Positions 1-22,439 of a DNA stretch of 33,592 nucleotides are shown piece by piece. The stretch covers positions 1-33,592 of IMG/VR virus record IMGVR_UViG_3300032243_000765; one strand, 5' to 3'. The first letter of the stretch is position 1, and every line of letters starts with the position of its first letter. Both the position numbers and the translations under genes were made by a program. Under the pieces are notes generated by a model, which saw only the letters and a list, made by a program, of their open reading frames with translations, did not search any database and was not told the origin of the DNA. Source of the stretch: a virus (Duplodnaviria; Caudoviricetes).

Positions 1-1
1 C

Positions 2-664
2 CACGACATCTACAGCATCCTCCAACGCTTGGACTTGATTGAGGGCCGGATTACTCCCGCCACAGTCCGGAAAGGCTTTAACGCACAACAGAAGTCAGTG
101 CCACAGATGCCAGCATTATTCAAAATGCCCAAACAAGGGCCTGTACTAGGTGGCGACCCCAATAAAAAAGCATCACCTGCTGGCTACATGTTTGGTGATG
201 ATGTAGAAGTGGGACAAATGCCCTTGGCAGAGACCATGGCTGAAATTGAAGAAGACATGATCTCCAAGGTCAAGAAAGACCTAACACACTACCTGGATCA
301 GTTGGCAGACAAAGTCCGAGTTGATCAAGATCTCAAAGACAAAGCAGTTCGAGATATTGAAGACGATAATCCCACAGATCCACAAGAAGAAGCGGCGGAA
401 GTAGATGAGATGCATGGCACACAAGGTCAAATCTCAACCATACCCGAACCTGTTAGTTCACCAGTAAAGACTATTCCACTTGAAGATGGTTCAGTATTAG
501 AGATACACGGTGACCAACGCAGAGGATTTACCATTCACAATGGCGCTCGAAGCATGCCTAGTAAGTTTCGAGAATTAGATGAAGCCGAGATGGCAGTGAA
601 TCTATATCGTGCCAGACGTCCGGCCAAGCCTGACTCCAGTGCAGACTACGTGGAAGAAGCATAA
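2..664 (+). CDS. Hypothetical acidic phage protein, 5'-partial (possible head/internal protein)
   Basis: The frame is open from base 2 (HDIYSILQRLDLIEG...), so the true start is probably upstream of the window; the ORF track starts it at TTG 29. Acidic, with several L/I-x-E motifs. Stop TAA overlaps the next ATG (TAATG). Confidence 0.7.
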   Translation, partial: HDIYSILQRLDLIEGRITPATVRKGFNAQQKSVPQMPALFKMPKQGPVLGGDPNKKASPAGYMFGDDVEVGQMPLAETMAEIEEDMISKVKKDLTHYLDQLADKVRVDQDLKDKAVRDIEDDNPTDPQEEAAEVDEMHGTQGQISTIPEPVSSPVKTIPLEDGSVLEIHGDQRRGFTIHNGARSMPSKFRELDEAEMAVNLYRARRPAKPDSSADYVEEA

Positions 665-2439
665 TGATACTGAACGAATTTTTTAACTTACCTCAAGTGT
701 TTGAAAAGCAAACGGATGAAGGAATCTTTGGTAGCAAAAAACCTGCAGAGCCTTTTGAATTTTATTTAGACGGCTGTGATCCTTACGCTGTTAAAAAATA
801 TCTACTGAACAAGTTTGGATCTAAAGGATGGCGTGTGGCAGGTCCTGGAGCAGGGACCAGCAGAGTATTTGTTGCCATGTCCCCAGAATTATATCCAACA
901 GCCAACGAAGCAAAATGGGATATAGAATCCAACTGTGGTCAACAAGGTGTGGCGGAAGACTTGAACGAAATTTACAAAATGCCGCCTACAAAAGACAGTA
1001 GTCAAGGAATGACCATTTGGGCCTATAATGATGCACTAGAAAAAAAGTTGCCTGTTGTGCATAAAGATAAAAATGTAATAATTTTTAAATCCAATGAAGA
1101 TTTACTGCGATATATCATATTACAAGATGGAAACCCTGTATTGTATATTGGTTTTAGTAAATTCCTTGATGGGTATAAATCCGGTGCTGTTGCTACCGAA
1201 ATACAAGGACGTGGTAAGGGTTTAGCACAAAAAGCATATATAAATGCCAGTGATATTTTAGGTGTTCCGATATATAGTGATAGCACACAAACTGATGCGA
1301 GTCGTTTAGGAATATGGGACAAACTTATTCAACAATACCCAGATAGAATTGTGGGATACGATCAAAAAACTAATAAAAATTTGCCATTGTCAGTTGGTGA
1401 CAAAGGTCCAATAGTAAATCAAAATCAACCTATATATGTTGATAGAAATCCAATAGACACAAAAAAGCCGGTATCACAAAATCAAAGATATAGAACAAGA
1501 ATTTTAAAACTGCTACCTATCAAGCAAAGTGTGGCGGAAGGTGTTGACATTGGCCAAGAATGGATGAGTGATACTGAGTTAGACCAGTATGTACCAGACC
1601 GCTTACAACAGCAATGGCGTGAACTATTGGGCTATGATCAGAATGGCAATCCAAGTGCGTTGTGGGTCAACTTAACAGGCGGCTACGAGCCCGATGTTCA
1701 GGATCCACAACACCGTGCGTTAATGGTCAAAGTGGCCAACAAGTGGTTTGCCGCAAAAAAGATTCCCAATGTCAAATTCTATGATGTCAAAGATGCTGAT
1801 GATGAATTAGAGTGGTTGGTACAAATTGGTTCTCAAGATGTGGCGGAAGGCTTGACTGGTCTATCTATACAACAACTGGCCACTATCAGTGACGAAGCAT
1901 TAGACAATGCTTATCATTATGGTCGTAGTCAACCTGGAAATACATTTGGTTGGCAAGCAAACTTGAAGTCCGCGGCTTATGCTAAACAAATGATTGACAA
2001 GGGTGTTACTGATATTGAAGCCATTAGCGATGCTATTCATACAGGTTGGAATGTAACTGCTCAAGCATTTGTAAAAAATCCTGATCAATTCAGTGATACT
2101 GAAAAACTAAAGGCTGCAGGTAAACTAGAGGCTAAACTTCAACAACGAGCACAATTGATGAAACAAAATTATGCTCAACTCCCAGAAGAAGAAAAAGAAA
2201 AAGACCGTGTGGTTGCTAGAGCATTATTACGTGCTATTACTGGTCAGCAAGGTGTGGCGGAAGGCAAGGACGACTACGTGCCACCTCGAGAAGCCAACTA
2301 CGATGACAAATATCAGGCCATGGTCCGGCGTGTGGGCGAAAAAGCCAAGCGGCAGGAAAAAGCCCGACAGCAACAGCCGCCAAAAACTCCTGTGCGTGAA
2401 AATCGCAGAGAGTTGTTGAAACAAATCATCCAATCATAA
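664..2439 (+). CDS. Modular repeat-delimited protein (QxVAE linkers) with GNAT-like and RyR-like modules; possible virion internal polyprotein
   Basis: 591 aa. Four linkers: QGVAED, QSVAEG, QDVAEG, QGVAEG. Module 2 has the GNAT-like motif QGRGKGLA plus SDSTQT. Module 4 has IHxxW and YAQLPEEEKEKDR, typical of RyR-domain repeats. Confidence 0.75.
   Translation: MILNEFFNLPQVFEKQTDEGIFGSKKPAEPFEFYLDGCDPYAVKKYLLNKFGSKGWRVAGPGAGTSRVFVAMSPELYPTANEAKWDIESNCGQQGVAEDLNEIYKMPPTKDSSQGMTIWAYNDALEKKLPVVHKDKNVIIFKSNEDLLRYIILQDGNPVLYIGFSKFLDGYKSGAVATEIQGRGKGLAQKAYINASDILGVPIYSDSTQTDASRLGIWDKLIQQYPDRIVGYDQKTNKNLPLSVGDKGPIVNQNQPIYVDRNPIDTKKPVSQNQRYRTRILKLLPIKQSVAEGVDIGQEWMSDTELDQYVPDRLQQQWRELLGYDQNGNPSALWVNLTGGYEPDVQDPQHRALMVKVANKWFAAKKIPNVKFYDVKDADDELEWLVQIGSQDVAEGLTGLSIQQLATISDEALDNAYHYGRSQPGNTFGWQANLKSAAYAKQMIDKGVTDIEAISDAIHTGWNVTAQAFVKNPDQFSDTEKLKAAGKLEAKLQQRAQLMKQNYAQLPEEEKEKDRVVARALLRAITGQQGVAEGKDDYVPPREANYDDKYQAMVRRVGEKAKRQEKARQQQPPKTPVRENRRELLKQIIQS
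943..2265 (+). repeat. Four dispersed in-frame direct repeats, consensus CAARRTGTGGCGGAAG
   Basis: The invariant core TGTGGCGGAAG lies at 948-958, 1530-1540, 1839-1849 and 2253-2263. Spacings are 582, 309 and 414 nt, all multiples of 3. Confidence 0.95.
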
Positions 2440-2440
2440 G

Positions 2441-2528
2441 AACACACCTACCTTAGGACCGTGTGGCCCGGGTGCTGGGCGTGGAAAGCGATTCGCTACC
2501 GTGATCCGCAAAGTGACCATTTTTCTTT
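2441..2528 (+). ncRNA. Candidate structured intergenic RNA (three hairpins followed by a T-rich run)
   Basis: Stems CACAC(2443-47)/GTGTG(2461-65), GCCCGG(2466-71)/CTGGGC(2475-80), and GTGGA(2481-85)/TCCGC(2505-09) enclosing AGCG/CGCT. GC-rich relative to its flanks. Family not recognised. Confidence 0.45.
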
Positions 2529-2538
2529 ACCAAACCCA

Positions 2539-2567
2539 TTGCTTTCGTAACTACATCAGTGTATAAT
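2539..2567 (+). promoter_or_regulatory. Sigma70-type promoter
   Basis: TTGCTT-N17-TATAAT, followed by SD AAGGAG at 2576-2581 before ATG 2587. Confidence 0.7.
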
Positions 2568-2586
2568 ACATGATCAAGGAGAACAC

Positions 2587-2853
2587 ATGAGCGATTATAA
2601 CCGCACTTTTAATGCCGAGGCCAAAGCCAAACTCACACAACTGATCAACGAAGGCATGCAAGTGCTACACGAAGTTGACACACTGAACGAAGGCCTCAAT
2701 GACACCATCAAGGCCATTGCTGAAGAATTGGAAATCAAACCTGCTACCTTAAAGAAAGCAATCAAGATTGCTCACAAGGCCAAACTGGGCGAGACCAATC
2801 GAGATCATGACGAACTCAACACTATCTTGGAAACTGTAGGCAAGACACTTTGA
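2587..2853 (+). CDS. Phage double-stranded DNA-binding protein (T4 DsbA-like)
   Basis: 88 aa helical protein (IKAIAEELEIKPATLKKAIKIAHK). Size, pattern and position near replication genes resemble T4-like dsDNA-binding proteins. Strong SD. Confidence 0.55.
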   Translation: MSDYNRTFNAEAKAKLTQLINEGMQVLHEVDTLNEGLNDTIKAIAEELEIKPATLKKAIKIAHKAKLGETNRDHDELNTILETVGKTL

Positions 2854-3161
2854 AACAAAGTTTTCAAGAATGGCGTAGTTCCGTTGCGGACTATGTTCGC
2901 AATGACTATCACGAATATCCCCTGCGCTTCTGCTTGGAGATGTTGGGTTGGGTAATCTCAATTGGCTGTAGTCTAACCTATGCTATTACAGTGCCCAACT
3001 TGCCATTCATTCCGCTGTATGCGGCTTTCATCACAGGATGCTTGATCATGGCCTGGTGTGCTTACACACGCGGCAGTTTTGGTATCCTGGGCAACTATTT
3101 GATACTAAGTATTATTGACAGCACAGGGCTGATAAAACTTCTTATTCAAGGCAATGGCTAA
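2850..3161 (+). CDS. Small membrane protein
   Basis: 103 aa with about three hydrophobic segments; the TTG start overlaps the upstream stop (TTGA). Confidence 0.65.
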   Translation: MKQSFQEWRSSVADYVRNDYHEYPLRFCLEMLGWVISIGCSLTYAITVPNLPFIPLYAAFITGCLIMAWCAYTRGSFGILGNYLILSIIDSTGLIKLLIQGNG

Positions 3162-4147
3162 TGGACGATCATGCCTGGGATGCACAATGGAGAAGTGCTG
3201 AAAATTACTGTGTTAAACAGATAAAAGATTTTGATTTTAAATTAAAACTAACGCACCCAGACCTATCTATTCAAGGATATCTTGTTGATGCAGTTCCTAC
3301 TGAGCGTCTCCAAGAACAGTGCAAACAGTACAGGCATGTGTATTTGCTTTCAGAGCAGTCAGGTTTTGCTGTTCCGGAAAATTGCACAGTGCATACCATG
3401 CCCAAATCATTCTACGGTACCTACTATGTAGACAACTTGAATCAGGATTGCGAAATTGTTCGAGATTATAATTGTTTCATGCACCGGGCCGACATTGCTC
3501 GACAAAATTGGTTTTATATTTTTTATGATCGTGGTTGGTTAGATCTTGGACATGTATCGTTTAATATTGATTTGCGCCCAGGGCTTTGGTATCCGGCTGA
3601 AACATCCAAAGAGGTGTTTGATCACTATCATAAAAGTTTGTTAAACAGTTACGACTATTTGTATTCATCTGTAGAAAAAATTGTGCCTTACAAAAACTTT
3701 GTAGATACGCACAATCAATTTGAAAGAGTGCTAGAAACAAAGTTTAGTATAGTTGTAGAACCCTATTACGAACGCCCAGATTCAGTTTGTTTCAGTGAAA
3801 AAACCATGCGTGTGCTACAGTTACCAAGACCTTGGGTACTATTCGGTGCCACTGGATCAGTTGATCGATTAAGAAACATGGGGTTTGATGTGTTTGATGA
3901 TTTTGTGGATCACAGTTATGATGTGTTTGATACAGAGCAATCTTATGTTCAACGACAGGATGCTATGATCTCTGAAATTGAAAAACTATTGCAATTACAG
4001 ACAACACCTGCTATAATAGATACATGGAAACAAAAAGCACAACACAATAGAAATATTTTAAGAACATGGGCACAGACTTGGCAGTCGGATTTTTTGAAAC
4101 TGTTAGATAAAGTTTATTGTGATGCAACACAATCACATGCTAAGTAA
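3161..4147 (+). CDS. Hypothetical protein, glycosyltransferase-like (SIVVE...SEKT...GFDVFDDFVDHSYD family)
   Basis: The C-terminal motifs are shared with ORF 18610-19554 and resemble GT10/GT-B nucleotide-sugar-binding regions. Function is inferred. Confidence 0.55.
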   Translation: MDDHAWDAQWRSAENYCVKQIKDFDFKLKLTHPDLSIQGYLVDAVPTERLQEQCKQYRHVYLLSEQSGFAVPENCTVHTMPKSFYGTYYVDNLNQDCEIVRDYNCFMHRADIARQNWFYIFYDRGWLDLGHVSFNIDLRPGLWYPAETSKEVFDHYHKSLLNSYDYLYSSVEKIVPYKNFVDTHNQFERVLETKFSIVVEPYYERPDSVCFSEKTMRVLQLPRPWVLFGATGSVDRLRNMGFDVFDDFVDHSYDVFDTEQSYVQRQDAMISEIEKLLQLQTTPAIIDTWKQKAQHNRNILRTWAQTWQSDFLKLLDKVYCDATQSHAK

Positions 4148-4208
4148 CAAAGAGTCGTTCACTACACGAACATGAATCATGGCCAACCAGCCACAAATGG
4201 AGAGAAAA
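4141..4208 (+). promoter_or_regulatory. Structured leader (two hairpins, possible SD-pairing pseudoknot) with a TAAGTA late-promoter-like motif
   Basis: Stems GTTC(4157-60)/GAAC(4168-71) and TGGC(4180-83)/GCCA(4190-93). Loop CCA(4187-89) can pair with TGG(4198-4200) at the start of the SD TGGAG. Confidence 0.4.
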
Positions 4209-4880
4209 ATGAACAATAAAGTAATGATTTGTTACTGCGGAGGGTCCGGCGGACACTTTATAGCGGCGTTATGTGAATATCTATTATTTCATAATAAACT
4301 AGAACCAACTCCTGAAGGTTCATATCATGTTTTGCAGTATGCTAGGCATCTATCATCTTCACAACTTCTTCCACAAATTTTAACAGCAGAAAGTATTGCC
4401 AGAGAATCTCAGTTTATTGAAAATCTTTCCGACTATCCATTAAACGTAAGCATTCTTAGAAACGTAGCATTGCTAGAGTTGCTCGGGTGGAAGGTTATAT
4501 ACATAACTTATCGTGTAGATCAAGTTCCAGAAATACGCTACCGGCATGATAAAAAACGCCCTCCTATGCGTATCGAAGATATAACTGAAGAAGTATATAA
4601 TATGCTTAAAGGCAACGACTGGCCTACCTGGGAACAATACAAAAATGGTGCAACTGTAGATGAACTTCATCCGGTGTATGCAAGATTAGTCAACAAAGAA
4701 GAATTATTAGATTGGTTTTATATACTTCCTCCAGAATCAAATAATATCTGCGAAATTAAATTTGATGAAATTTTACGTGGGTATACCCTTATTGACAAGT
4801 TAATTTCATTTTTAAATATTAATGATGTTAACAAAAACGAATTGAAGGAATTTGTTGACAATTATAGATCTAAACAATGA
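4209..4880 (+). CDS. Hypothetical AT-rich protein (sulfotransferase/P-loop-like N-terminus)
   Basis: Start moved to ATG 4209 because of the GGAGAG SD. N-terminal YCGGSGGHF resembles ORFs 14900 and 21280. Contains KGNDWP. Confidence 0.55.
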   Translation: MNNKVMICYCGGSGGHFIAALCEYLLFHNKLEPTPEGSYHVLQYARHLSSSQLLPQILTAESIARESQFIENLSDYPLNVSILRNVALLELLGWKVIYITYRVDQVPEIRYRHDKKRPPMRIEDITEEVYNMLKGNDWPTWEQYKNGATVDELHPVYARLVNKEELLDWFYILPPESNNICEIKFDEILRGYTLIDKLISFLNINDVNKNELKEFVDNYRSKQ

Positions 4881-7537
4881 GTTATATTGACGCACTATTT
4901 GATCGTGAGCACGATCGTATTCACATTGTAGAACGCCGTAATGGCGAACGAGTATATAGGGAATATCCTGCCAACTACATATTCTACTACGACGACCCAA
5001 GAGGTAAATTCCAAAGTATCTATGGCACATCAGTTACAAGATTCAGCACAAGAAACAACAAGGAGTTCCGCAAGGAAGTGCGTGTTCACAGCCATAAGCC
5101 GCTGTATGAAAGCGACATCAATCCCATATTCAGATGCCTTGAAGAAAACTACAAGGACCAAGATGCGCCTGAACTTCACACAGCGTTTTTTGACATTGAG
5201 GTGGCGTTTGATAAAGATCGCGGCTTCTCACCGGTATCGGACCCTTTTAATCCCATTACTGCGATTTCAGTCTATCTAGATTGGCTAGATCAACTGGTAA
5301 CCCTGGCAGTACCTCCCCGGAGCATGACCTGGGCCACGGCACAGGATCTTGTGGCTGACTTTGAGAACACTATCTTGTTCGAGCAAGAGTCAGAAATGAT
5401 CAAGACCTTTTTGGACTTGATTGAAGATGCAGACATCTTGACAGGTTGGAACTCAGAAGGCTATGACATTCCCTACACCATCAACAGAGCCACACGAGTG
5501 TTATCAAAAGATGACACACGACGTTTTTGTTTGTGGAACCAACTGCCCAAGAAGCGTATGTTTGAACGTTTTGGTGCTGAGAATGAAACTTATGACTTGA
5601 TTGGTCGTGTGCATATGGACTATATGCAACTGTATCGCAAGTACACATATGAAGAGCGCCATTCATATAGTTTGGACGCTATATCAGAATACGAACTGGG
5701 TGAGTGCAAGACACAATTTGAAGGCACCCTGGACAGTTTATACAATCAACACTTCCGGACGTTTATTGAATATAATCGTCAAGATACTATGCTTATCGCC
5801 AAGATGGACAAGAAGTTACGCTTCTTGGAATTGGCCAATGAATTGGCGCATGCCAATACCGTGCTACTGCAAACCACAATGGGTGCGGTGGCTGTAACTG
5901 AACAGGCAATTATCAATGAAGCACATGAACGTGGAATGGTTGTGCCCAACCGTAAACAAAGACTCACAGACGAAGACACACAGGCGGCAGGTGCCTATGT
6001 TGCTTATCCCAAGAAAGGTGTCCACGAATGGATTGGTTCAGTCGACATCAACAGTCTCTATCCCTCGGCTATTCGTGCGCTCAACATGGGGCCAGAAACC
6101 ATTGTAGGACAACTGCGTCCTGTGATGACTGATCACTTGATCAAAAGCAACATGGCCAAGGGTCAGAGTTTTGCGGCAGCCTGGGAAGGCTTGTTTGCCA
6201 CACTAGAATATACTGCTGTGATGGAACAACAGCGTGGAACAGAGATCACTATCGATTGGCAGTCAGGAGAAGAGACTGTGCATTCGGGTGCAGAAATATG
6301 GCACATGTTGTTTGATAGCAATCAGCCTTGGATACTCAGTGCCAATGGTACTATCTTTACCTATGAAAAGAAAGGTATCATACCTGGCTTGCTGGAACGT
6401 TGGTATAGTGAACGCAAGGAACTACAGGCTCGAAAAAAGGACGCACGAGATGCCAAAGAAATTGCTTTCTGGGACAAACGCCAACTGGTTAAAAAGATTA
6501 ACCTCAACAGTTTGTACGGGGCTATTCTTAACCCGGGCTGTAGGTTCTTTGACAAACGTATTGGACAGTCAACAACACTTACTGGTCGTTCGATTGCCCG
6601 GCACATGGACGCTTATCTTAATGAGTGCATCACAGGCGAATACGACCACGTGGGAAAAGCAGTTATATATGGTGACACAGACTCGTGTTATTTCTCCGCG
6701 TGGCCGGCTCTCAAGAAAGAAGTTGAAGAAGGCCGCATGGCATGGTCAAAAGAAACTTGTATTCAACTGTATGACAGCCTTGCTGAGCAGGTCAACTCGA
6801 GTTTTCCCGGCTTCATGGAACAGGCGTTTCACTGCCCCAGAGACATGGGTGCATTAATCATGTGCGGTCGTGAAACTGTGGCAGATCGTGGTTTGTTTAT
6901 TACCAAAAAGCGTTATGCTGTGAACGCTATTGATATTGAAGGCAAAAGATTAGACGTAGAAGGCAAAATTGGCAAAACAAAAGCCACAGGACTTGACCTA
7001 AAACGTTCAGATACCCCCAAAGTAATTCAAGAGTTCTTGCTAGAAATTCTAAATAAACTACTTTCTGGTGCTGGCAAGGATGAGATTGTGGAACGTATAC
7101 GTGAGTTCAAGTATGAATTTATGGAACGACCAGGTTGGGAGAAAGGCAGTCCCAAGCGTGTGAACAACTTGACCAAGTACGCGGCAGAAGAAGCCAGACT
7201 GGGCAAAGCCAACATGCCAGGGCATGTGCGAGCCGCAATGAACTGGAATCAGATGAGACGTATGAACGGAGACAACTACTCAATGCAGATTGTGGACGGT
7301 ATGAAAACCATTGTGTGCAAACTCAAATCAAATGCATTGGGTTGGACTTCAATTGGTTATCCTACAGATGAACAACGCTTGCCCACTTGGTTTACTGAAT
7401 TGCCGTTTGACGATGGACTTATGGAAGCAACTGTAGTGGATCAAAAGGTTGACAACTTGTTGGGCGTGTTGGATTGGGAATTGGCATCAGCAACCAACAC
7501 AGAAAACACATTTACTAATTTGTTTGAATTTGGATGA
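4877..7537 (+). CDS. gp43: DNA polymerase family B (T4 gp43-like)
   Basis: Exonuclease motifs FDIEV, GWNSEGYDIPY and YNRQD; polymerase motifs DINSLYPS, KKINLNSLYG and YGDTDS; 886 aa. Confidence 0.97.
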   Translation: MSYIDALFDREHDRIHIVERRNGERVYREYPANYIFYYDDPRGKFQSIYGTSVTRFSTRNNKEFRKEVRVHSHKPLYESDINPIFRCLEENYKDQDAPELHTAFFDIEVAFDKDRGFSPVSDPFNPITAISVYLDWLDQLVTLAVPPRSMTWATAQDLVADFENTILFEQESEMIKTFLDLIEDADILTGWNSEGYDIPYTINRATRVLSKDDTRRFCLWNQLPKKRMFERFGAENETYDLIGRVHMDYMQLYRKYTYEERHSYSLDAISEYELGECKTQFEGTLDSLYNQHFRTFIEYNRQDTMLIAKMDKKLRFLELANELAHANTVLLQTTMGAVAVTEQAIINEAHERGMVVPNRKQRLTDEDTQAAGAYVAYPKKGVHEWIGSVDINSLYPSAIRALNMGPETIVGQLRPVMTDHLIKSNMAKGQSFAAAWEGLFATLEYTAVMEQQRGTEITIDWQSGEETVHSGAEIWHMLFDSNQPWILSANGTIFTYEKKGIIPGLLERWYSERKELQARKKDARDAKEIAFWDKRQLVKKINLNSLYGAILNPGCRFFDKRIGQSTTLTGRSIARHMDAYLNECITGEYDHVGKAVIYGDTDSCYFSAWPALKKEVEEGRMAWSKETCIQLYDSLAEQVNSSFPGFMEQAFHCPRDMGALIMCGRETVADRGLFITKKRYAVNAIDIEGKRLDVEGKIGKTKATGLDLKRSDTPKVIQEFLLEILNKLLSGAGKDEIVERIREFKYEFMERPGWEKGSPKRVNNLTKYAAEEARLGKANMPGHVRAAMNWNQMRRMNGDNYSMQIVDGMKTIVCKLKSNALGWTSIGYPTDEQRLPTWFTELPFDDGLMEATVVDQKVDNLLGVLDWELASATNTENTFTNLFEFG

Positions 7538-9413: not shown

Positions 9414-10084
9414 TAACACAATTGGCATCAAGAGGTTATGGATATGGTTCGGGTGTGCTCAGCCCGACTCAGGATCGCTTCCTGATAAACATACCCAAAA
9501 ATGCCAGTAGTTACATGCTGGACTGGACCAATCGTCATGGTTGGACCAGTGTGGTGATTGACAACACGTCGCCGTTGGGCGATAGTATTCAAGAGATGAT
9601 TGTTTGTGTTAGAGATCCTGTTCAACGTTGGATATCAGGTGTGGGACAGTACTTGACCAGTTATGTGTTGAATGTGACTGGTGCGTACAGTTGGGAAACT
9701 GGCCCTGGTCCAGATGATCAACAGATATCTGCGGATGACTTTGTAGCAGACTACAATCAAGTGGTCGAGCGTTTGTTGTTTGATAATCTTTCAAGATTGG
9801 ATGATCATGTTTGGCCGCAGACGGAATTTTTCGAAAATCTCTTGCCCTCAGTTCCTAGAAAATTCTTTTACATAGATCAAGACTTTGATCAACGTATCGG
9901 TGAGTATCTTGGGTTTGATCCTATATCTAATCTAGATGGCAATCGTGCTGATTCTAATCCTGACACACACAAAATTCAAACATTTATTCGACATCGTCTA
10001 AATACTAGACCCGAACTAGAGCAAAGAGTACGCAAGGCCTATGTTCGGGACTATGATCTAATTAAACAAGTATTCACTAAATGA
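9410..10084 (+). CDS. Sulfotransferase family protein
   Basis: PAPS-binding-like motifs INIPKNASS and VRDPVQRWISG, plus DHVWPQ and YVRDYDL. Confidence 0.75.
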   Translation: MITQLASRGYGYGSGVLSPTQDRFLINIPKNASSYMLDWTNRHGWTSVVIDNTSPLGDSIQEMIVCVRDPVQRWISGVGQYLTSYVLNVTGAYSWETGPGPDDQQISADDFVADYNQVVERLLFDNLSRLDDHVWPQTEFFENLLPSVPRKFFYIDQDFDQRIGEYLGFDPISNLDGNRADSNPDTHKIQTFIRHRLNTRPELEQRVRKAYVRDYDLIKQVFTK

Positions 10085-11631
10085 CCGAACAAGACAACTT
10101 AACCGCCAAGCAACTGGACTATGCTGTGTTCCTGCCAGCCATATCAGGTTTTTACGCCACCTTTGTGGGCAAGCAACGTGATCCCGTGAATGGTCCCTAT
10201 GTGGATCCTGCACGTATGCCTGCTGGTATCCAAGACATGGAAATGATGAACTGGCTTCATAGTCAAAAGGGATTGTTTCCATACAAATGGAGCCTGTATT
10301 CAGGTGGTCATGCCAACTTGGATTTGACCAAACAAGACTGGTCAGAGGACATGGTTCGCAATCGAGATCCCAATACTGTGTTGCTGGGTGACTCAGGTGG
10401 ATTCCAGATTGCCAAAGGCTTGTGGGAAGGCGACTGGAGGGCCAATTCAGGATGTGCCAAAGCACAAAAGAAACGTTCACAAGTGTTGACTTGGTTAGAC
10501 TCAATTAGCACATACGGTATGGGTCTTGATATTCCTACTTGGGTCATACACGACAAAAAAGCGTCGGACGCTTGTCAGATCAAAACCTTGGACCAAGCAG
10601 TTGCGGCCACCAAATACAACAATGAATATTTTATCAAACACCGTCGGGGCAAGGATGCAGGCGGTGCCAAGTTCTTGAATGTGCTACAAGGTGACAATCA
10701 TCCCAATGCAGATGCATGGTACGAACTCATGAAAGAGTATTGTGATCCTGTCAAGTATCCTGGACGTCACTTTGATGGCTGGGGCATGGGCGGACAAAAC
10801 ATGTGTGATGTTCATTTGGTGCTCCGGAGACTGGTAGCACTACGTCATGACGGTCTGCTACAAGAAGGCCTGCATGATTGGATGCACTTCTTGGGCACAT
10901 CAAAGTTGGAATGGGCTGTGCTACTCACCGTGATCCAAAGGGCAGTTAGAAAGTATGTTAATCCATCCTTTACTATTTCCTTTGATTGTGCCAGTCCATT
11001 CCTCGCTACTGCCAACGGGCAAGTGTATCATCACATTGACTTGCCGCACAACGACAAATGGTGTTATAGAATGAGTCCTATTGTGGATGATAAAAAGTAC
11101 GCCGCAGATACTAGACCATATGGACAGGCTGTGGTAGCAGACGGCTTGATCGATCACTTTGATGAGTCGCCTATTAGTCGTCAACTGCAAATGAAAGATA
11201 TCTGTATCTACAAACCCGGTGACCTAAACAAGATTGGTAAAGAAGGCAAGACTTCGTGGGATTCATTCTCATATGCTTTGTTAATGGGTCATAATGTTTG
11301 GACACATTTGGAAGCAGTCCAACGTGCTAACCGCACATATGATTCGGGTTCATGGCCAGCCATGATGTGGAACCAAGGTACCAAAGGTCGTACTGGAGAT
11401 CACGCACACTTCCGTGACATTGTTGATGCTATCTTTGCCACATCAGACCGTGCGGAATCAGAAGCCATTATCGAACACTATTCAAGATATTGGATGGACA
11501 TTGTGGGCACTAGAGGATTCAAAGGTGACAAGACCATCAGTGCCAGACCACAGTTCAGTATGTTTTTTGAAGAAGATGAAGACACCGACTCGGATGAGTT
11601 AGATGCTGATAAACTTGAAGCATTAGAATAG
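10081..11631 (+). CDS. dpdA: tRNA-guanine transglycosylase-like protein (DpdA-like 7-deazaguanine transglycosylase)
   Basis: TGT motifs GDSGGFQ, LDIP, NVLQG, GWGMGG, HFLGT and SFDCAS; co-located with folE, queD and queE in a phage replication region. Confidence 0.82.
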   Translation: MTEQDNLTAKQLDYAVFLPAISGFYATFVGKQRDPVNGPYVDPARMPAGIQDMEMMNWLHSQKGLFPYKWSLYSGGHANLDLTKQDWSEDMVRNRDPNTVLLGDSGGFQIAKGLWEGDWRANSGCAKAQKKRSQVLTWLDSISTYGMGLDIPTWVIHDKKASDACQIKTLDQAVAATKYNNEYFIKHRRGKDAGGAKFLNVLQGDNHPNADAWYELMKEYCDPVKYPGRHFDGWGMGGQNMCDVHLVLRRLVALRHDGLLQEGLHDWMHFLGTSKLEWAVLLTVIQRAVRKYVNPSFTISFDCASPFLATANGQVYHHIDLPHNDKWCYRMSPIVDDKKYAADTRPYGQAVVADGLIDHFDESPISRQLQMKDICIYKPGDLNKIGKEGKTSWDSFSYALLMGHNVWTHLEAVQRANRTYDSGSWPAMMWNQGTKGRTGDHAHFRDIVDAIFATSDRAESEAIIEHYSRYWMDIVGTRGFKGDKTISARPQFSMFFEEDEDTDSDELDADKLEALE

Positions 11632-11632
11632 C

Positions 11633-12556
11633 ATGTCTATATTATACACCAATGCGCAGAGACAGCAGTATACTGATCGTGATCCAGGCTCGCCTTATTG
11701 GTCAGATTACGTTAAAACTGATGCAAATTATTTGTTAGAAAAAAAATATAATAGATCAAAATTAGTAATTTGCTATGGTGATAGTTGGACCTGGGGAGAT
11801 AGTCTTGGAAATACTAGTGCGGCCACTGGAGTAGATGATATTGAATTTAGATCCAACAACGTTTACGGCAATTGGTTAGCAAACAATATTGATGCAGATT
11901 TTGTCAACTGTGCTATTCCTGGAATTTATAATTTTTGGATACACGATCGTTTGCAAATTTTGTTAAATCATGACATACAAAGACTTAGTGAACAATATGA
12001 AAAAATAGTCATTGTAGTTACATTAACTGAACTTGGTAGAGATTTCGGGTTTGACAAATACAAACAAGAATTCAATAATTTTTATAATTGGAACGCCAGC
12101 GACTCGGTAGAAGAAATACTGATTCAGGCAGAACGATTTGATTTTTTAAAACTCAAAGACGTTCAAACTAAATTACCCGGTAATTGTAATATGTTGATAG
12201 GAAGAAATTTTACAAATACATTTGACCAAAATCAAGATATCGTTGATAATCTACTGCCTAAAAATTGGACACAAGTTATGTTTGAAGCGCAAGGATTTGA
12301 TCACGACACCAATGTACGCATGATGAGTTTTGGTATTAAAGAGTTCGATAAATTTATTGTCAAAGAAAAATTGGATTCAATTGAATACAAACAATGGATG
12401 GGCTCTGTTATTTTACCTTTAGGGAAAAAACAGATTGACCTATTAGAACAAAGCCAGTATAATTATAAAAAGGCTACCAAACACCCTACTCCACAGGGAC
12501 ATAAATTGTGGGCGGATTATTTGTTAAACTATATTAATCAAAAGCAATACATATGA
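11633..12556 (+). CDS. SGNH/GDSL hydrolase-like protein
   Basis: YGDSWTWG block I and C-terminal HPTPQGHKLWA; AT-rich. Confidence 0.7.
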   Translation: MSILYTNAQRQQYTDRDPGSPYWSDYVKTDANYLLEKKYNRSKLVICYGDSWTWGDSLGNTSAATGVDDIEFRSNNVYGNWLANNIDADFVNCAIPGIYNFWIHDRLQILLNHDIQRLSEQYEKIVIVVTLTELGRDFGFDKYKQEFNNFYNWNASDSVEEILIQAERFDFLKLKDVQTKLPGNCNMLIGRNFTNTFDQNQDIVDNLLPKNWTQVMFEAQGFDHDTNVRMMSFGIKEFDKFIVKEKLDSIEYKQWMGSVILPLGKKQIDLLEQSQYNYKKATKHPTPQGHKLWADYLLNYINQKQYI

Positions 12557-13080: not shown

Positions 13081-13478
13081 TGAATCAATATCCCGCAATC
13101 ATGGGCGCCTCAGTTCAGCCCAAACAACATAGACGTAACAAGATCTACGGCACCACTACCGCAGTCAAAACAGTAAGAAAACACCAAACAAAAGGACCCA
13201 ATATGTTTAAACGAATGATCAAAGGCTTGGTCACATGGAGCACGACCGATCACCATGATCGAGAAGAAGTTGCCATCTCATCAGATCATGAATACAGAAT
13301 CGGTGCCACTGGCATCAAGTTCGAAGTGTATCGTGCCAATGGTGGCACAGTGATTGAGACTCGCAGACCTGATCGCCGCACAGGTGACAACATATATGAA
13401 CTGCATGTGGTTGCTGGAGATCAAGACATTGGGCAAGAAATAGGTCGTATTATTACCATGGAAGCATTGAAAGCATGA
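13080..13478 (+). CDS. Hypothetical protein
   Basis: 132 aa, coupled by TAATG/ATGA overlaps. An alternative start at MFKRMIK (13203) follows AAGGA. Confidence 0.6.
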   Translation: MNQYPAIMGASVQPKQHRRNKIYGTTTAVKTVRKHQTKGPNMFKRMIKGLVTWSTTDHHDREEVAISSDHEYRIGATGIKFEVYRANGGTVIETRRPDRRTGDNIYELHVVAGDQDIGQEIGRIITMEALKA

Positions 13479-14209
13479 CCCAGGCATGCGCAAGCACTGA
13501 CAAGATCTGGCCTAGAAAAGTTATAGGGGAGAGTAACCCACAATGTCAGTATGAAACATTGTTAGATCCAATAAAAGATATTTTTGTTGGAAACTCGGTG
13601 TTAGATGTAGGATGTTACACTGGTTATAGTACTGATCTAATTAAAAAATATCATGCTGTGCGGTGCACCGGGCTTGACCTAGTAGAAGAATTTATTGACA
13701 CAGCCAAGGAATCGTTTGAACAGCAAGATGTACAATTTTTATGTGGGAGTTTGAGTGATCTCGAATTAGTCAAACAACTGGTTAAAGAACACAACGTGGT
13801 TACTTCATTTGGTAATTTTTATCACATGTATAATCATTTTGATTTGATCAAATTATTTTGCCAACCACATGTTAAATATCTGGTGCTAGATTCAATATAT
13901 GGTCCAGAATCGGCTGATCCAGGAATGTTTTGGACTTTTCAACAAATTATTAGACAAAAAAAAGAAATTATTGCAAAAGGAACTCCAAACATCAGTTGGA
14001 TCATGCAGGCCTGCAAATGTTTTGGGTTTAAATTAGACTATGTACACCGCTATTACTCAAGAACAGATTGGAACAACATAGAAGACTTCAACGCCAATAT
14101 GAGAATGACCATGCGATTTTTTAATTCAAACATAATTGATAAAACAACATATTTTGAAATCGATGATGTTTGGCCATGGTCCAACGAATTTTTAATACAA
14201 AAGGTATAA
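13475..14209 (+). CDS. Class I SAM-dependent methyltransferase
   Basis: Motif I VLDVGCYTG, GLD, and FGNFYH. Confidence 0.8.
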   Translation: MTQACASTDKIWPRKVIGESNPQCQYETLLDPIKDIFVGNSVLDVGCYTGYSTDLIKKYHAVRCTGLDLVEEFIDTAKESFEQQDVQFLCGSLSDLELVKQLVKEHNVVTSFGNFYHMYNHFDLIKLFCQPHVKYLVLDSIYGPESADPGMFWTFQQIIRQKKEIIAKGTPNISWIMQACKCFGFKLDYVHRYYSRTDWNNIEDFNANMRMTMRFFNSNIIDKTTYFEIDDVWPWSNEFLIQKV

Positions 14210-14664: not shown

Positions 14665-14886
14665 ATGGCCAAGCCACAAATCAAACACAATCCCTGCACT
14701 CAACAAGTATGGGAGGATTTGGATCGCTATCGCGAGTTTGTACAAGACTATGGATATCGCTTTAACGAAGCGGACTTGTATAACTTCCGCAGTTATGCAT
14801 TCCAACAATTCAACAAGCATGTGCAGGGCAAGACTGCCAAGAACATGTGGGACGAAGACACACGTCGTTTTGCTTCAAGGTTCTAA
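14665..14886 (+). CDS. Small hypothetical protein
   Basis: Start moved to ATG 14665 (MAKPQIKHN) behind SD AAGGA; 73 aa. Confidence 0.65.
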   Translation: MAKPQIKHNPCTQQVWEDLDRYREFVQDYGYRFNEADLYNFRSYAFQQFNKHVQGKTAKNMWDEDTRRFASRF

Positions 14887-14899
14887 TTTCGGTCGAAGC

Positions 14900-15787
14900 A
14901 TGGTATATGTATTTTTTGTGCCTGGCATGTTTGGAAGTACCATAGAATATGTGCTGAGAAATTACACAAAAGAACTCGATCCTGTGTACGGCAAAATTCT
15001 TGATGATGGAAGTCTCCATTCATTTAAAAAACAAGCACATGTGGCACATATATCGGATTTAAACAGTTTATCTGAGCACATACTGGATCTTGACAATAAT
15101 ATATCTGTTATAACTCAAACATATCCATTTCAACAAACTCGTCTTCCTGAGATACTGTCAATGGCAAAATCTGTCATAACTGAAAATGATCAGTGTATTT
15201 TGCTCTATGCAGACAGTGTTGCTGGCGCAGAGTTGAATATGTTATTTCAATATCATAAAATTTGTGTTGGCCTAAATAAAACTTTGGATATTTTTTGTTT
15301 GGGTAACAGTCACAACATTGTGAATTGGAACAAGAATTATCAACATTGGAAAGACATGCAACCCTGGGAACTACGTGAGTGGTTCAGTATGTTTTACATA
15401 GACTGGATACAAGAATGGATCGATAGTCAAGCACAAGTTCCTGCAAACTGGTTAAAAATATCCAATGTTGATTTTTTAAATAATCCTGACGAAGCCATTG
15501 ATCAAATTATTCAGTTTTGTGGACTTACCGAAAAACCTGAGATAGAACAATTTTTTCAGGAATGGAAACAAAAACAACAATATGTAATTGACGAAATGTC
15601 ATTGATCAATCATATTTCAAAATCCACTGTTAAACAAGTTTGGTTTGCTTGGGAGCCACTCAACATCATAGCAGAAAGCATGATACAGCAGAAATTGCAA
15701 TCTCAAGGTTACAAAATACGCTGTGATGGGTTAAACACTTTTCCCACAGACACTGAAACACTTTACAATCTACTAGAAAAATGTTAA
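14900..15787 (+). CDS. Hypothetical protein, sulfotransferase/P-loop-like
   Basis: Likely start MVYVFFVPGMFGST at 14900. C-terminal LKISNVDFLNNPDEAIDQIIQFCGL resembles sulfotransferase folds. Confidence 0.55.
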   Translation: MVYVFFVPGMFGSTIEYVLRNYTKELDPVYGKILDDGSLHSFKKQAHVAHISDLNSLSEHILDLDNNISVITQTYPFQQTRLPEILSMAKSVITENDQCILLYADSVAGAELNMLFQYHKICVGLNKTLDIFCLGNSHNIVNWNKNYQHWKDMQPWELREWFSMFYIDWIQEWIDSQAQVPANWLKISNVDFLNNPDEAIDQIIQFCGLTEKPEIEQFFQEWKQKQQYVIDEMSLINHISKSTVKQVWFAWEPLNIIAESMIQQKLQSQGYKIRCDGLNTFPTDTETLYNLLEKC

Positions 15788-15788
15788 A

Positions 15789-16490
15789 ATGAGCATTATG
15801 AATTTAGAATCTCAAATACAAAAGTTCTACGGAGAAATCAAGTTTCCTGGAACGTATACCTTAGAAGATTTTGAAATTTACAAAGAACATTTGTTTAACC
15901 CATTTCTTGTGCAAATTGAGCAAGGAATAACAAAATGTAAAAGAGTATTAGATATAGGGTGTGGTAGCGGTATGATTGTAAATCTTTTGGCATATCGCAA
16001 TCCTAACATACAGTTTGATGCCGTGGATTTTTCTGACAGTATCGATTTTGCTCTTGATTTTAGTACCAAACATAAAATTCAAAATGTAAGATTTTATAAA
16101 ATGAACTTTTTTGAGTTTCAATCAAAATCTACATATGATGCTGTGATATGCAATGGTGTATTGCATCATATGCCAGATTATTTGAATGCAATCAAGCATA
16201 TCGATCATCTACTAGAAAAAAACGGTAGACTTGTGGTTGGCCTATATAATCCGTATGGAAAATTAGCAAAGAAACTATTTTCTATAAAGTATGTGAATCA
16301 AATCTTGTTCATGGATCAAGAAAGAGCACCATTTGAACTTACATTCAATTATAAACAGGTCAAATCTCTTTTTAAACAATACACTCTGGAAAAAGTATAT
16401 CCTAGTGTAATCGATCGACTGGTTGACTTGAGAAATATTTTCAACTATACTAATGGCGGGCTTACAATTTATACTTTTAGGAAAAATTAA
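15789..16490 (+). CDS. Class I SAM-dependent methyltransferase
   Basis: VLDIGCGSG, YDAVICNGVLHH and LLEKNGRLVV; very AT-rich. Confidence 0.85.
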   Translation: MSIMNLESQIQKFYGEIKFPGTYTLEDFEIYKEHLFNPFLVQIEQGITKCKRVLDIGCGSGMIVNLLAYRNPNIQFDAVDFSDSIDFALDFSTKHKIQNVRFYKMNFFEFQSKSTYDAVICNGVLHHMPDYLNAIKHIDHLLEKNGRLVVGLYNPYGKLAKKLFSIKYVNQILFMDQERAPFELTFNYKQVKSLFKQYTLEKVYPSVIDRLVDLRNIFNYTNGGLTIYTFRKN

Positions 16491-17676: not shown

Positions 17677-18620
17677 ACATCATAGTAACCGGATCAGCAG
17701 GCTACATTGGTGGCCAAATCATGTTGCAGTTGAAAGACGCAGGGCATACTGTATATGGAATCGATCGACAACAGCCACCCCGACACTTGTTGGGAGTGTG
17801 CGATAAATTCTTGTTACAAGACTTTGCGTCAGATGTGGCCTTGAGTTACATTATTAGTAAACAACCTGATGCTATTATTCATTGTGCTGGCACAAGTCTT
17901 GTGGGTCCTAGTATGCAGAATCCCAGTGACTATTACAACAACAATGTGGTCAAGACTCTAAAGTTGTTGGACATTGTTAAAAACAGTCTGCCTCAAACAA
18001 GATTTATCTTTAGTAGCAGTGCTGCCACATATGGTGAACCTATCATGACTCCGTGTCAGGAAGTGGATCCTTGTGAACCTGTTAGTCCTTATGGCCAAAG
18101 CAAACTCATGGTGGAACAGATCTTGGCCAGTCACAATCGAGCATATGGTCTAGACTATGTGGCATTCCGTTACTTCAATGCCTGCGGTGCCGACAGTCAA
18201 GGCAGACATGGACAAGCACCTGGTGCCACACACATCATTGCTCGTGTGCTAGAAAGCATTAGAGATCAAAAAGAATTTGTGTTGAATGGAGATGATTTCC
18301 CAACAGTGGATGGTACTTGTGTGCGTGACTACGTGCATGTGGAAGATATCGCAGGTGCTCATGTGCTGGCCTTGGATCGAAAAATAGAACCAGGCGTGTA
18401 CAATCTTGGTTCTAACATGGGCACAAGCAATCGAGGCATTATCGAAGCCGCACTGGATGAAACACAAAGGCCATTGAATGTTGTAGTTGGCGCTCGTCGT
18501 GAGGGCGATCCTGCTGTGTTAACAGCCAGTGATGCAAAATTTGCATCCGTTGTAGGCAAGTGGCGTCATTACATACTAGATGATATAATTCGTCACACAT
18601 GGTCTTGGTATGTTCGATAG
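17673..18620 (+). CDS. galE: UDP-glucose 4-epimerase
   Basis: TGSAGYIG, FSSSAATYG, YGQSK (YxxxK), RYFNACGA and DGTCVRDYVHV. Confidence 0.9.
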   Translation: MNIIVTGSAGYIGGQIMLQLKDAGHTVYGIDRQQPPRHLLGVCDKFLLQDFASDVALSYIISKQPDAIIHCAGTSLVGPSMQNPSDYYNNNVVKTLKLLDIVKNSLPQTRFIFSSSAATYGEPIMTPCQEVDPCEPVSPYGQSKLMVEQILASHNRAYGLDYVAFRYFNACGADSQGRHGQAPGATHIIARVLESIRDQKEFVLNGDDFPTVDGTCVRDYVHVEDIAGAHVLALDRKIEPGVYNLGSNMGTSNRGIIEAALDETQRPLNVVVGARREGDPAVLTASDAKFASVVGKWRHYILDDIIRHTWSWYVR

Positions 18621-19554
18621 TGCAGGAATTTTTTACTTCAACAAACCAAAAGATGTCTTGTTTGATGATAATTGGGTTTTAGATTATAACAAGATTACCC
18701 GACTCAAACAACATAAGTTAGTCATTGCAGATTTCAGTCCTGATCACTATGGCGTGGATGGCCTTGATCATGTATACCACGCCTTGGATCAACAGCAAGT
18801 AAATTTTTTGCTGTTGTCGCATGATCCAAACGATCATCAACGTTTTGACCGAATGTGGTTTTATCCAACTTGGTACCACTGGGCCAGGAAAAATTTAAAA
18901 ACTAAAAATTCTCAATCATTGGACAAAACCTACAAGTGGAGTTGTTTGAATGCTAATCCAAGAAATCATCGAATATACAACTACTATTGTTTGTATCAAA
19001 AACCCTATTTCCGAGATGCATGCTTTACCTTTTACAATGGGGAAGTAACAAAAGCAGACGATGCGGTATTGGATGATGAAGTAATACAATTCTGGAACGA
19101 TATCAAACAAACGTTACCTCACAGTAGCACAATATTTTCAAACGGTTATCCAATAGCAGATTGTAATCTTCCTGCTTGTTATGATTCTTATATTCATCTG
19201 GTGGTAGAAACTACTGTGATTGAAAAAGTTTTTGTGACTGAAAAAACGTGGAAACCCATTGCCTCAGAACAACTTTTTTTAATTTTTGGAACGCCAGGCA
19301 CAATAAAATATCTCAGAAATCACGGAGTGGATGTATTCGACGATTTGATAGATCACAGTTATGACCACACACTAGATTGGAAATTGAGACTGCATCAAAT
19401 ACATCAGCAACTGGAATTATTGATTTCTCAAGATTTAAAAAAACTTTATGAAGTCACACATCAGAGACGCCAAGCGAATAGACAAAAATTTCTTTCAGGT
19501 GCATACGATCAACAAAATTTAGAACAACAAATCAACCTGTTGCTACAAATCTAA
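18610..19554 (+). CDS. Hypothetical protein, glycosyltransferase-like (paralog of 3161-4147)
   Basis: IHLVVET...FVTEKTWKPI...GVDVFDDLIDHSYD. Confidence 0.55.
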   Translation: MFDSAGIFYFNKPKDVLFDDNWVLDYNKITRLKQHKLVIADFSPDHYGVDGLDHVYHALDQQQVNFLLLSHDPNDHQRFDRMWFYPTWYHWARKNLKTKNSQSLDKTYKWSCLNANPRNHRIYNYYCLYQKPYFRDACFTFYNGEVTKADDAVLDDEVIQFWNDIKQTLPHSSTIFSNGYPIADCNLPACYDSYIHLVVETTVIEKVFVTEKTWKPIASEQLFLIFGTPGTIKYLRNHGVDVFDDLIDHSYDHTLDWKLRLHQIHQQLELLISQDLKKLYEVTHQRRQANRQKFLSGAYDQQNLEQQINLLLQI

Positions 19555-19573
19555 ATTGCGATTGCTCTTTACC

Positions 19574-19587
19574 TTAAATAAAACATG
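19574..19587 (+). promoter_or_regulatory. T4-late-like TAAATA motif directly before ATG
   Basis: TTAAATAAAACATG; a near-identical TTAAATAAAGCATG precedes ATG 27141. Confidence 0.4.
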
Positions 19588-20613
19588 TATCAACATGCTG
19601 AACTAGTACACTGGATGAAAAATCAAGAGTCAATGAAACTGTTACCTGCACAGGTTGACATAGATTTGACCAATGTTTGTAATCAAGATTGTTACTATTG
19701 CAACAGCGCAGATTTTCGCCGCGACCGACCAGTTCAAAAAAAGTACACAGAATACATTGCATTATTGGACAAACTGGCTGGTTGGAGAGCACACAGTCCC
19801 AACAGTTACGGAACAACACATACTATTACCTATCCTGGCGGAGGTGAGCCTACAGTATTACCTGGATACGAACATGTGATTGAACACACCATTGACCTGG
19901 GCTTCTTGGCCAGTATCACTACCAACGGCAGCAATCTAGACAAGTTATTGGACAGTATAGTGGTAGAAAAATTACGCAAGATTGCCTGGATCGGTATTGA
20001 TATTGATGCTGGTACTGAAGAATTGTACGAGCAAATTCGCCGCAGCCTCACAGCAAAAAGTTTGTTTGGCCGTGTGATTGAAAACGCCAAACATTTGATT
20101 GCCGCAGGAGTAAATGTTGACTTCAAGTGCTTGATCAACCCTCTCAACGACAACCCAGGTGCCATGAACGATTTGTTTGCATTGGTTAAAAAATTAGGTG
20201 GGCGTATGATTTATTTTCGCCCTGTAATTACCAATAATCAAGCCCATCCTATAACACAAGAAACTATTGCAATGTTGGCGAAACTAAGTCAAAAATACAA
20301 CATACCTTATTGGGCTAACCAAAATAAAACACTTCCGCGTAACTACAAGAAATGTCACCAAATGTTTCACTTTCCTGTTTTTTGTGCCGATGGCAAAATA
20401 TACGTGTGTTGTGAAGGCAAGGGCAACCCCCAATTTGAGTTGTGCAACTGGGACGCTGGTGACTTTAGAGATATGTGGCTAACTGAACGACATCACGAAA
20501 TATACAACAAGACCCGTGTGGAATTTTGTCAACCGTGCCGGCCAAATATCTCTAACATAAACATACAAAATATTTTGAATAATCCAAAAGAAATTGAGAC
20601 ATTGTACCTATGA
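19585..20613 (+). CDS. Radical SAM protein with a SPASM/twitch-like C-terminal domain
   Basis: CNQDCYYC, GGGEP, ITTNG; C-terminal KCHQ...ADGKIYVCC...CQPC. Confidence 0.88.
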   Translation: MYQHAELVHWMKNQESMKLLPAQVDIDLTNVCNQDCYYCNSADFRRDRPVQKKYTEYIALLDKLAGWRAHSPNSYGTTHTITYPGGGEPTVLPGYEHVIEHTIDLGFLASITTNGSNLDKLLDSIVVEKLRKIAWIGIDIDAGTEELYEQIRRSLTAKSLFGRVIENAKHLIAAGVNVDFKCLINPLNDNPGAMNDLFALVKKLGGRMIYFRPVITNNQAHPITQETIAMLAKLSQKYNIPYWANQNKTLPRNYKKCHQMFHFPVFCADGKIYVCCEGKGNPQFELCNWDAGDFRDMWLTERHHEIYNKTRVEFCQPCRPNISNINIQNILNNPKEIETLYL

Positions 20614-22080: not shown

Positions 22081-22439
22081 ATATCACATTTCCAATTATA
22101 GAACTAGTTGATAGACTGGCAATTGCCGAAGTAAAATCTCATCGCACCAATGGTGCCAATGGGGCTGAGTTAGCATATTACATGGATCAAGCATTAAAAG
22201 TTGATTTAGATTTGATAGTCAATGAATACCAAGCACTCAAAGAAATTCATAATAAAATTTGGGAACTAGAGTCTGAACTTAAAACAGGCCGTGAAGCAGA
22301 ACTTGCACTAGAGGAAATAGGTCGGCGGGCTATTATCATTAGAGATCACAATAACAAACGTATATTACTTAAAAATGCCATCGCAGAAAAATTAAGTTGC
22401 CCAGTACGGGAAATCAAACAGGATCATCTCAGTCAATAA
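22077..22439 (+). CDS. Coiled-coil hypothetical protein (DUF6165-like)
   Basis: The pattern ELVDRLAIAEVK...LKEIHNKIWELE...NNKRILLKNAI resembles DUF6165 proteins of glycosylation loci. Confidence 0.55.
   Translation: MNITFPIIELVDRLAIAEVKSHRTNGANGAELAYYMDQALKVDLDLIVNEYQALKEIHNKIWELESELKTGREAELALEEIGRRAIIIRDHNNKRILLKNAIAEKLSCPVREIKQDHLSQ

Follow-up and report, generated by a model that had tools for sequence, protein, structure and literature searches.

Results

A gene of repeat-linked modules

Positions 664..2439 of the virus record IMGVR_UViG_3300032243_000765 (Duplodnaviria; Caudoviricetes) hold a single open reading frame (ORF) in which unrelated protein modules are chained through four copies of a 16-nucleotide (nt) repeat, at which whole modules come and go between related genomes and whose encoded residues likely form a protease site. 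The whole stretch analysed, a 33.6-kb fragment (33,592 nt) that carries no head genes, is referred to as the window. The labelled sequencing runs containing the stretch are lake or freshwater metagenomes. Relatives are phage genomes of 339-374 kb, five of which (97-100% complete) were used for gene-family tests; the capsid protein of one relative shares 60-65% identity with its counterparts in PA5oct, GAP32 and comparable jumbo phages. Among cultured phages, no match was found for the modular protein, its upstream gene or module 3.

Table 1. The modular gene, its parts and its immediate neighbours (window coordinates; aa, amino acids; slash, module boundary).
Feature	Position	Strand	Basis or remark
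Modular gene, 591 aa	664..2439	+	ORF; orthologues found
N-terminal leader MILNEFFNLPQVFEK plus degenerate junction ending in Glu19	664..720	+	Predicted capsid-targeting segment
Variable module 0, 79 aa, no family	721..957	+	Replaced in all 6 orthologues
Repeat 1, QGVAE/D	943..958	+	Exact consensus
Module 1, 194 aa, predicted GNAT acetyltransferase fold, mobile	958..1539	+	Structure model, contigs, stand-alone homologues
Repeat 2, QSVAE/G	1525..1540	+	1 mismatch
Module 2, 103 aa, no known family, mobile	1540..1848	+	Stand-alone homologues
Repeat 3, QDVAE/G	1834..1849	+	1 mismatch
Module 3, 138 aa, all-helical, weak RyR-repeat-like C-terminal motif, mobile	1849..2262	+	Widespread stand-alone gene with leader
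Repeat 4, QGVAE/G	2248..2263	+	Exact consensus
Conserved C-terminal segment (..DDYVPP..IIQS)	2263..2439	+	6/6 complete close orthologues plus partial L002
Upstream gene, 5' end cut by window	2..664	+	Conserved; orthology anchor; 41 loci, 35-93% identity
Structured non-coding RNA candidate, conserved	2437..2528	+	Directly after the modular gene's stop codon
T4 DsbA-like gene, downstream anchor	2587..2853	+	phrog_639 E 6e-9; PF11126 E 9e-4

Copies, codon use and drift of the repeat

The window has four copies of the core word TGTGGCGGAAG, at 948, 1530, 1839 and 2253, all of them on the + strand (shuffled sequences hold 0.35 on average, even with one mismatch allowed), and all four copies fit the 16-nt consensus CAARRTGTGGCGGAAG. 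The spacings of 582, 309 and 414 nt correspond to 194, 103 and 138 codons, and every copy reads V-A-E in the modular ORF. A fifth, degenerate junction (KQTDE/G, residues 15-19), with nine mismatches to the repeat, splits the conserved N-terminus from variable module 0. Segment by segment, the G+C fraction along the ORF is 0.41, 0.34, 0.46, 0.40 and 0.52.

About 1,400 stored viral stretches contain the repeat pattern. Each of the five relatives' records holds 2-5 copies per 300-374 kb, on one strand and mostly clustered, with most copies in the modular-gene cluster beside the orthologue; in 229 of 235 distinct TGTGGCGGAAG copies, the longest reading frame around the copy reads it in the VAE frame. 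On these per-genome counts a Chi-like or host-wide motif was rejected, and we know of no Chi word that the repeat resembles. The 17-mer was found in about 160 stretches of bacterial genomes, as single matches among the 80 listed, a number not far from the 70 or so expected by uniform-composition arithmetic. At loci fetched through the DsbA-like gene, so that the repeat pattern played no part in their selection, linker-like VAE is spelled GTG GCG GAA in 36/48 cases (32/44 without the window), as against roughly 1% expected from codon use.

The original prediction, made from the letters of the window, had described four in-frame copies delimiting segments of these lengths, and a sharp contrast in composition (18/60 G+C at 1021-1080 versus 34/60 at 2281-2340); both are borne out on recounting. 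Two of the tests that it set also came out in its favour, with an in-frame, coding-strand bias genome-wide and a far from random choice of synonymous codons in the VAE linkers of relatives. The invariance of the core that it described holds within the window and does not extend across the family, where wobble bases drift. Among 109 in-frame near-copies with 1-3 mismatches, the wobble base is changed in the Gly codon 23 times, in Val 22 times and in Ala 27 times, and the first two Glu bases just 4 and 1 times; Glu persists in 103, and V, M, L or I two residues before it in 107. Such counts indicate that the linker is under protein-level selection for hydrophobic-x-Glu, a point that the original prediction missed, and the drift pattern would fit a single word of ancestral DNA that exchange has spread and that decays within limits set by the protein.

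Module exchange at the repeat

Orthologues were picked with the upstream gene as anchor (L211, L212, L213, L005, L215 and L216; L214 duplicates L212). In these six distinct complete close orthologues, which measure 215-692 aa and whose upstream gene is 87-93% identical, both termini are kept, down to an identical first 15 aa of the leader in 6/6, and the interiors differ. Homology breakpoints, defined as distinct internal alignment ends among 197 repeat-bearing ORFs and scored as at the repeat when within 12 nt of it, fall there in 133/181 cases versus 27.9 expected; the loci are related, so these are not counts of independent events. Among the remaining 48 breakpoints, 29 have [VMLI]-x-E within 6 residues, against a background of 14%.

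Module 1 matches 943-1540, from repeat to repeat and with 0-1 differences, in contigs of four runs (X2, X3, X8 and X4), whose records run on beyond it without a match; these are 4 of 8 runs examined, from four studies, and the contigs possibly come from one lineage. L002, L044 and L207 also carry module 2, and the module that follows it differs in each. Module 3 is precisely missing from L002 and from the empty allele P0145, where the window's module-2 tail (SQDVAE) is fused directly to the C-terminal segment, a junction that places the crossover within the shared core. The difference within three pairs amounts to exactly one module together with one repeat (window/L002, 414 nt; L005/L216, 375 nt; L001/L216, 201 nt). 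Contig joints with a side of fewer than 30 letters were not counted and likely reflect the repeat itself; the joint at 1829-2246 in X13 is one contig at depth 3.3.

Because orthologue interiors differ, breakpoints cluster at the repeat, module 1 recurs bounded by repeats and empty alleles exist, we conclude that modules are gained, lost and swapped at the repeat with the frame kept. The original prediction had proposed just such a DNA-level role, with in-frame insertion, deletion and swapping, module boundaries at the repeat and homologues that lack a fixed module set, and on each of these points it is supported. Assembly artefact or chance was rejected as a source of the pattern on the shuffle counts, the orthologues and the contigs from several studies.

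Its comparison with integrons and shufflons, in the sense of a dedicated recombinase reading the site, found no such support: wobble bases drift, and none of the recombinase and reverse transcriptase families searched for was detected in the five near-complete relatives. Tyrosine recombinase PF00589 was absent from 5/5 (controls 14/14; a divergent enzyme may lie below detection), as were reverse transcriptase PF00078 (controls 3/14), serine recombinase PF00239 and IS110 PF01548. Homologues of UvsX, UvsY, gp32 and gp46/47 are present in the relatives examined, and general recombination is the likelier agent of the exchange.

Payload modules

The modules are numerous, small and mostly unfamiliar: 197 genes yield 194 module families, of which 147 are singletons, and the median internal module has 80 aa. 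Among the 97 family representatives (of the 194 families) of at least 75 aa, 12 have a Pfam match and 85 have none; the matched modules include a Pol-beta nucleotidyltransferase, a deaminase, a GNAT and four Tat (twin-arginine) signal-like segments. The latter lie just after a junction (L061:1375-1794, L002:66-692, L115:9146-9925 and L147:3616-4392) and would become exposed new N-termini if the linker is cut.

Within the window, the module 0 region (664-945) has no PHROG or Pfam match. Module 1, also without a match to Pfam or to PDB sequence profiles, gave a model with a predicted local distance difference test (pLDDT) score of 81, whose list of similar folds is filled by GNAT proteins (best Z 7.9, below the tool's threshold of 8; root-mean-square deviation 3.4 over 109 aligned residues). 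It contains GRGKGLA with conserved Gly, and the CoA-binding motif of GNAT enzymes is R-G-x-G-x-A; module 1 is predicted to have a GNAT acetyltransferase fold. Stand-alone forms exist for module 1 (P0128, P0129, P0132, P0134 and P0135) and module 2 (P0139, P0140 and P0142), the latter also finding unnamed clusters at 0.92 in an Atlas search, which serve as leads only. Module 3, with 455 homologues and a helical model of pLDDT 95, shows a below-cut-off RyR Pfam match (13/24 members at E<=0.1) and weak RyR matches among PDB profiles; searching by fold returned no clear match (best Z 6.5; RyR-like 3nrt, Z 4.5).

A predicted head-protease site in the linker

The prohead protease gp21 of phage T4 cleaves after L/I-X-E, and the T4 internal proteins bear a short capsid-targeting leader (PMC9026906). 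A PF03420 protease scores above cut-off in 5/5 relatives, matching T4 gp21 (5jbl, E 3.6e-14), and lies in a portal-core-protease-scaffold-capsid block; the capsid protein of relative G006 has four [LI]-x-E sites within its first 42 residues. The leader of the modular gene resembles in form that of a portal-adjacent gene.

The stand-alone homologues of the modules are informative in this respect. For module 3, 112 of 120 listed homologues (455 found) were scorable, and 71 of these begin within 30 residues of the core; 68 of the 71 carry [VLIMF]-x-E no more than 14 residues before the core (background 8.8%), their leaders mostly ending in I-N-E, e.g. MSTELFRKYIDIINE. By inspection, leaders of stand-alone modules 1 and 2 end in INE, ITE, IAE, LTE or similar, and the proteins stop where the cassette tail begins. 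This positional match between the leader Glu of stand-alone genes and the linker Glu is the strongest indirect evidence for a protease site. A second hydrophobic-x-Glu site follows within 8 residues of the repeat in 29/194 module families (background 6%), as if an old leader end had been retained. By analogy with T4, the linker V/M-x-E is likely a cut site for a gp21-type head protease. Sites of this form in the scaffolds of two relatives have V or M in 6/25 and 6/22 cases. The enrichment of scaffolds in [VLIM]-x-E (6.8 versus 3.3 per 100 residues; Glu spacing 19 at -3 and 25 at -2 of 49) is not counted as support because it is confounded by coiled-coil spacing.

In PA5oct, annotations of detection by ESI-MS/MS (tandem mass spectrometry with electrospray ionisation) are attached to homologues of family modules, namely gp140 (E 2e-24), gp206 (E 2e-36) and gp349 (E 5e-8), which match modules of the family other than those of the window's own protein. 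PA5oct gp150, similarly annotated, is syntenic with a portal-adjacent MILNE gene of a relative, to which tblastn gave no match. No repeat array was found within the 250 of 287 kb of PA5oct examined.

Conserved and MS-flagged, gp206 has homologues (L090, L096, L118 and L136) with repeat-linked modules appended, which implies that core genes also serve the cassette system as carriers. Some modular proteins (L240, L242 and L245) end in ..RMQHLAGI.., like the ..KRLAGL scaffold ends of L251-L255, and such ends are possibly a second capsid-targeting signal.

Structured RNA and gene neighbourhood

The RNA candidate behind the modular gene has invariant blocks CCTTAGG..CC, CGG.TGCTG and AAGTGA.C, and a gapped pattern gave 54 matches, including one each in relatives G006 and G007. 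Over 22 sequences, a 14-pair structure has 91.5% of cells pairing and 11 pairs with changes in both partners, values higher than in slid controls; in a 3-bp pseudoknot there is one compensatory change, in two related sequences. Rfam gave no match within window positions 1-5000, and the pattern was not found in the same 250 kb of PA5oct.

A sigma70-like promoter, read by eye, precedes the DsbA-like gene (TTGCTT at 2539, TATAAT at 2562), and a family B polymerase gene also lies downstream of the modular gene in the window. In two relatives the orthologue closes a cluster of modular and leader-bearing genes running from ClpA/DnaJ to DsbA/PolB (G006:C1:137085-150586, L262-L263; G007:C1:52687-66828), which includes a Dps/ferritin-like gene and a 1243-1365 aa nucleotidyltransferase-plus-amidoligase-like protein (labels by eye). 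Elsewhere in the window, 10081-11631, 23765-24511, 25866-26315 and 30697-31554 hold 7-deazaguanine DNA-modification-like genes (tRNA-guanine transglycosylase-like, FolE, QueD and QueE, by eye). AT-rich accessory genes stand among higher-GC core genes at 3161-4880, 11633-12556, 13475-14209, 14738-16490, 18610-23682, 25089-25790 and 31946-32635, and include methyltransferase-, glycosyltransferase-, radical SAM- and SGNH-like genes (by eye).

Discussion

On balance, we favour an account that we hold to be probable, if far from certain: the locus is a cassette array, exchanged at a 16-nt repeat, that encodes a capsid-packaged polyprotein cut by a gp21-type protease into injected proteins. Since the repeat is an exchange site and likely also a protease site, the gene probably stocks the particle with separate proteins whose set can change. 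Cassettes would go back to stand-alone genes made of a leader and a domain, the linker taking the place of the leader's hydrophobic-x-Glu or coming before it. Crossovers would be made by the phage's general recombination (UvsX, UvsY, gp32 and gp46/47 homologues) with the repeat as short homology, and it would follow from such use that modules with the common sequence spread as older junctions decay at wobble bases. The N-terminal leader would target the chain to the prohead, gp21 would cut V/M-x-E after each linker Glu, and released modules such as the predicted GNAT may act in the host at infection.

Several observations weigh against this account. A length of 16 nt is short for UvsX-type recombination; only 3/24 indel events pass a strict repeat-bounded test, repeats flank the longer allele on both sides in 9/24, and recently moved junctions are only weakly nearer the consensus (mean 1.35 versus 1.72 mismatches, p=0.085). 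As regards cleavage, the linker is mostly V/M-x-E and the published T4 motif L/I-X-E, and no depletion of [VLIM]-x-E is seen inside the modules (0.97 versus 1.07 per 100 residues). The PA5oct data are likewise unhelpful: the MS list includes non-structural enzymes, and the major capsid protein has 97% peptide coverage (table S5 of the published supplement), which implies that uncleaved propeptide was present in the sample. A leader pattern fixed beforehand was not enriched among MS-detected PA5oct proteins (3/88 versus 3/228, p=0.22), nor was a looser one (18/88 versus 59/228).

These last points bear on an unlikely though credible account in which modules are shuffled and the product stays one uncut multidomain protein, resembling polyvalent proteins, with QGVAE as a flexible linker whose Glu is kept by the DNA site. 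The undepleted module interiors, the capsid-protein coverage and the negative leader tests would all suit an uncut chain, and polyvalent proteins hold GNAT and Pol-beta nucleotidyltransferase domains, both seen among the modules here, in single chains (PMC5512222). However, stand-alone genes reach hydrophobic-x-Glu at the same position by a different peptide, mostly I-N-E or L-N-E, and degenerate junctions (MTE, VEE, VDE and TDE) retain the Glu after 2-9 bases of DNA drift.

More doubtful still is a dedicated, unrecognised recombination or capture system that reads the repeat, possibly with the adjacent structured RNA, as the original prediction proposed for the repeat. One consensus persists across diverse phages and even in AT-rich genes, which keep the codon bias (GTG GCG in 32/36 VAE junctions at a third-position G+C fraction, GC3, of about 0.3); the RNA lies no more than 3 kb downstream of a repeat in 19/34 loci with enough sequence (loci fetched around the region); and general recombination leaves unexplained how stand-alone genes first acquired flanking repeats. 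Speaking against such a system are the absence of four recombinase and reverse transcriptase families, each from all five near-complete relatives, the drift of wobble positions, and a repeat that by eye has no dyad symmetry; PA5oct, whose examined part lacks both repeat arrays and the RNA pattern, is neutral. We give equally little weight to the boldest form of this idea, an integron-like system inside coding sequence whose 16-nt word is at once crossover and protease site, and in which stand-alone genes are captured by unrecognised machinery, perhaps involving the RNA, so that hundreds of injected plug-in proteins form a pool shared across the community.

Highly improbable, in our view, is that the array is a by-product, in which short repeats let mostly neutral fragments pile up in core- or scaffold-like proteins that can be cleaved, the pieces then being removed from the head with no host role. 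Small modules, the many singleton families and the scarcity of Pfam matches would agree with this, as would the presence of linkers in core-like acidic proteins, whereas the models of modules 1 and 3 are compact and of high confidence, and both modules also survive as intact genes standing alone. Nested products started at the GTG/ATG codon of the repeat, a notion that the commonest first-base change there (G to A, giving ATG) might suggest, were rejected and can practically be dismissed, since a Shine-Dalgarno-like word precedes 24/413 junction codons, as at internal GTG (61/1339 and 90/2083) and unlike real starts (56/151 and 89/301), and GTA variants are common (21/109).

Should the steps proposed for the packaged, gp21-cut polyprotein prove right, the repeat delimits the members of a large pool of small phage proteins that are delivered as infection begins. 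It would then offer a ready-cut candidate library for anti-defence and host-takeover screens, a sequence rule by which the injected proteins of uncultured jumbo phages could be predicted, and a natural way to fill a capsid with several proteins from a single gene; it would moreover illustrate clearly how a single short sequence can be under selection both at the DNA level, for exchange, and at the protein level, for release.

Comparison with known systems

Our literature search, with subscription papers and bioRxiv supplements outside its reach, found no description of such a system, and several known systems share parts of it. Integrons and shufflons are cassette arrays with a shared junction, and shufflons alter a protein in frame. 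Here, too, cassette boundaries lie at a shared site; unlike in those systems, no tyrosine recombinase was detected in 5/5 relatives, the repeats are direct, modules are gained and lost rather than inverted, and no attC-like palindrome was seen. Likeness to diversity-generating or retron-like retroelements is lacking as well, with reverse transcriptase in 0/5 relatives.

The T4 internal proteins, described in PMC9026906 and PMC12373910 as injected anti-defence proteins, are closer. IPI, IPII, IPIII and Alt resemble the modules here in being small and variable and in following a short leader whose end is hydrophobic-x-Glu (IPIII starts with MKTYQEFIAE), and T4-type head genes with a gp21 homologue are common to T4 and the relatives. 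In contrast, the T4 internal proteins are separate genes with a leader each, whereas here many unrelated domains share a single reading frame and a single leader, and the cut-like site doubles as a DNA exchange point.

PeSL shuffling in the T4-type phages RB49 and phi1 (PMC2839356) likewise uses a repeated element as the crossover for ORFan cassettes, leaves one chimeric copy and has no dedicated recombinase identified; mini-circles have been demonstrated there. Among the assembled contigs compared with the window, no go-back joint was listed, an outcome that carries no weight either way. PeSLs, however, are intergenic promoter-plus-stem-loop elements of about 100 bp that move whole genes, whereas the repeat here is 16 nt, coding (229/235 copies in the VAE frame, as given above), in-frame and moves domains. 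Polyvalent proteins (PMC5512222, PMC7824862) are likewise mosaic, include GNAT, Pol-beta nucleotidyltransferase and other conflict domains, and have been proposed to be delivered with the DNA; recombining cassettes are raised there as a possibility, and the passages concerned describe no repeated linker, shared DNA junction or per-domain release by a head protease. The locus is a new combination of known parts: a probable delivery like that of the T4 internal proteins, exchange like that of PeSLs, and a content resembling that of polyvalent proteins.

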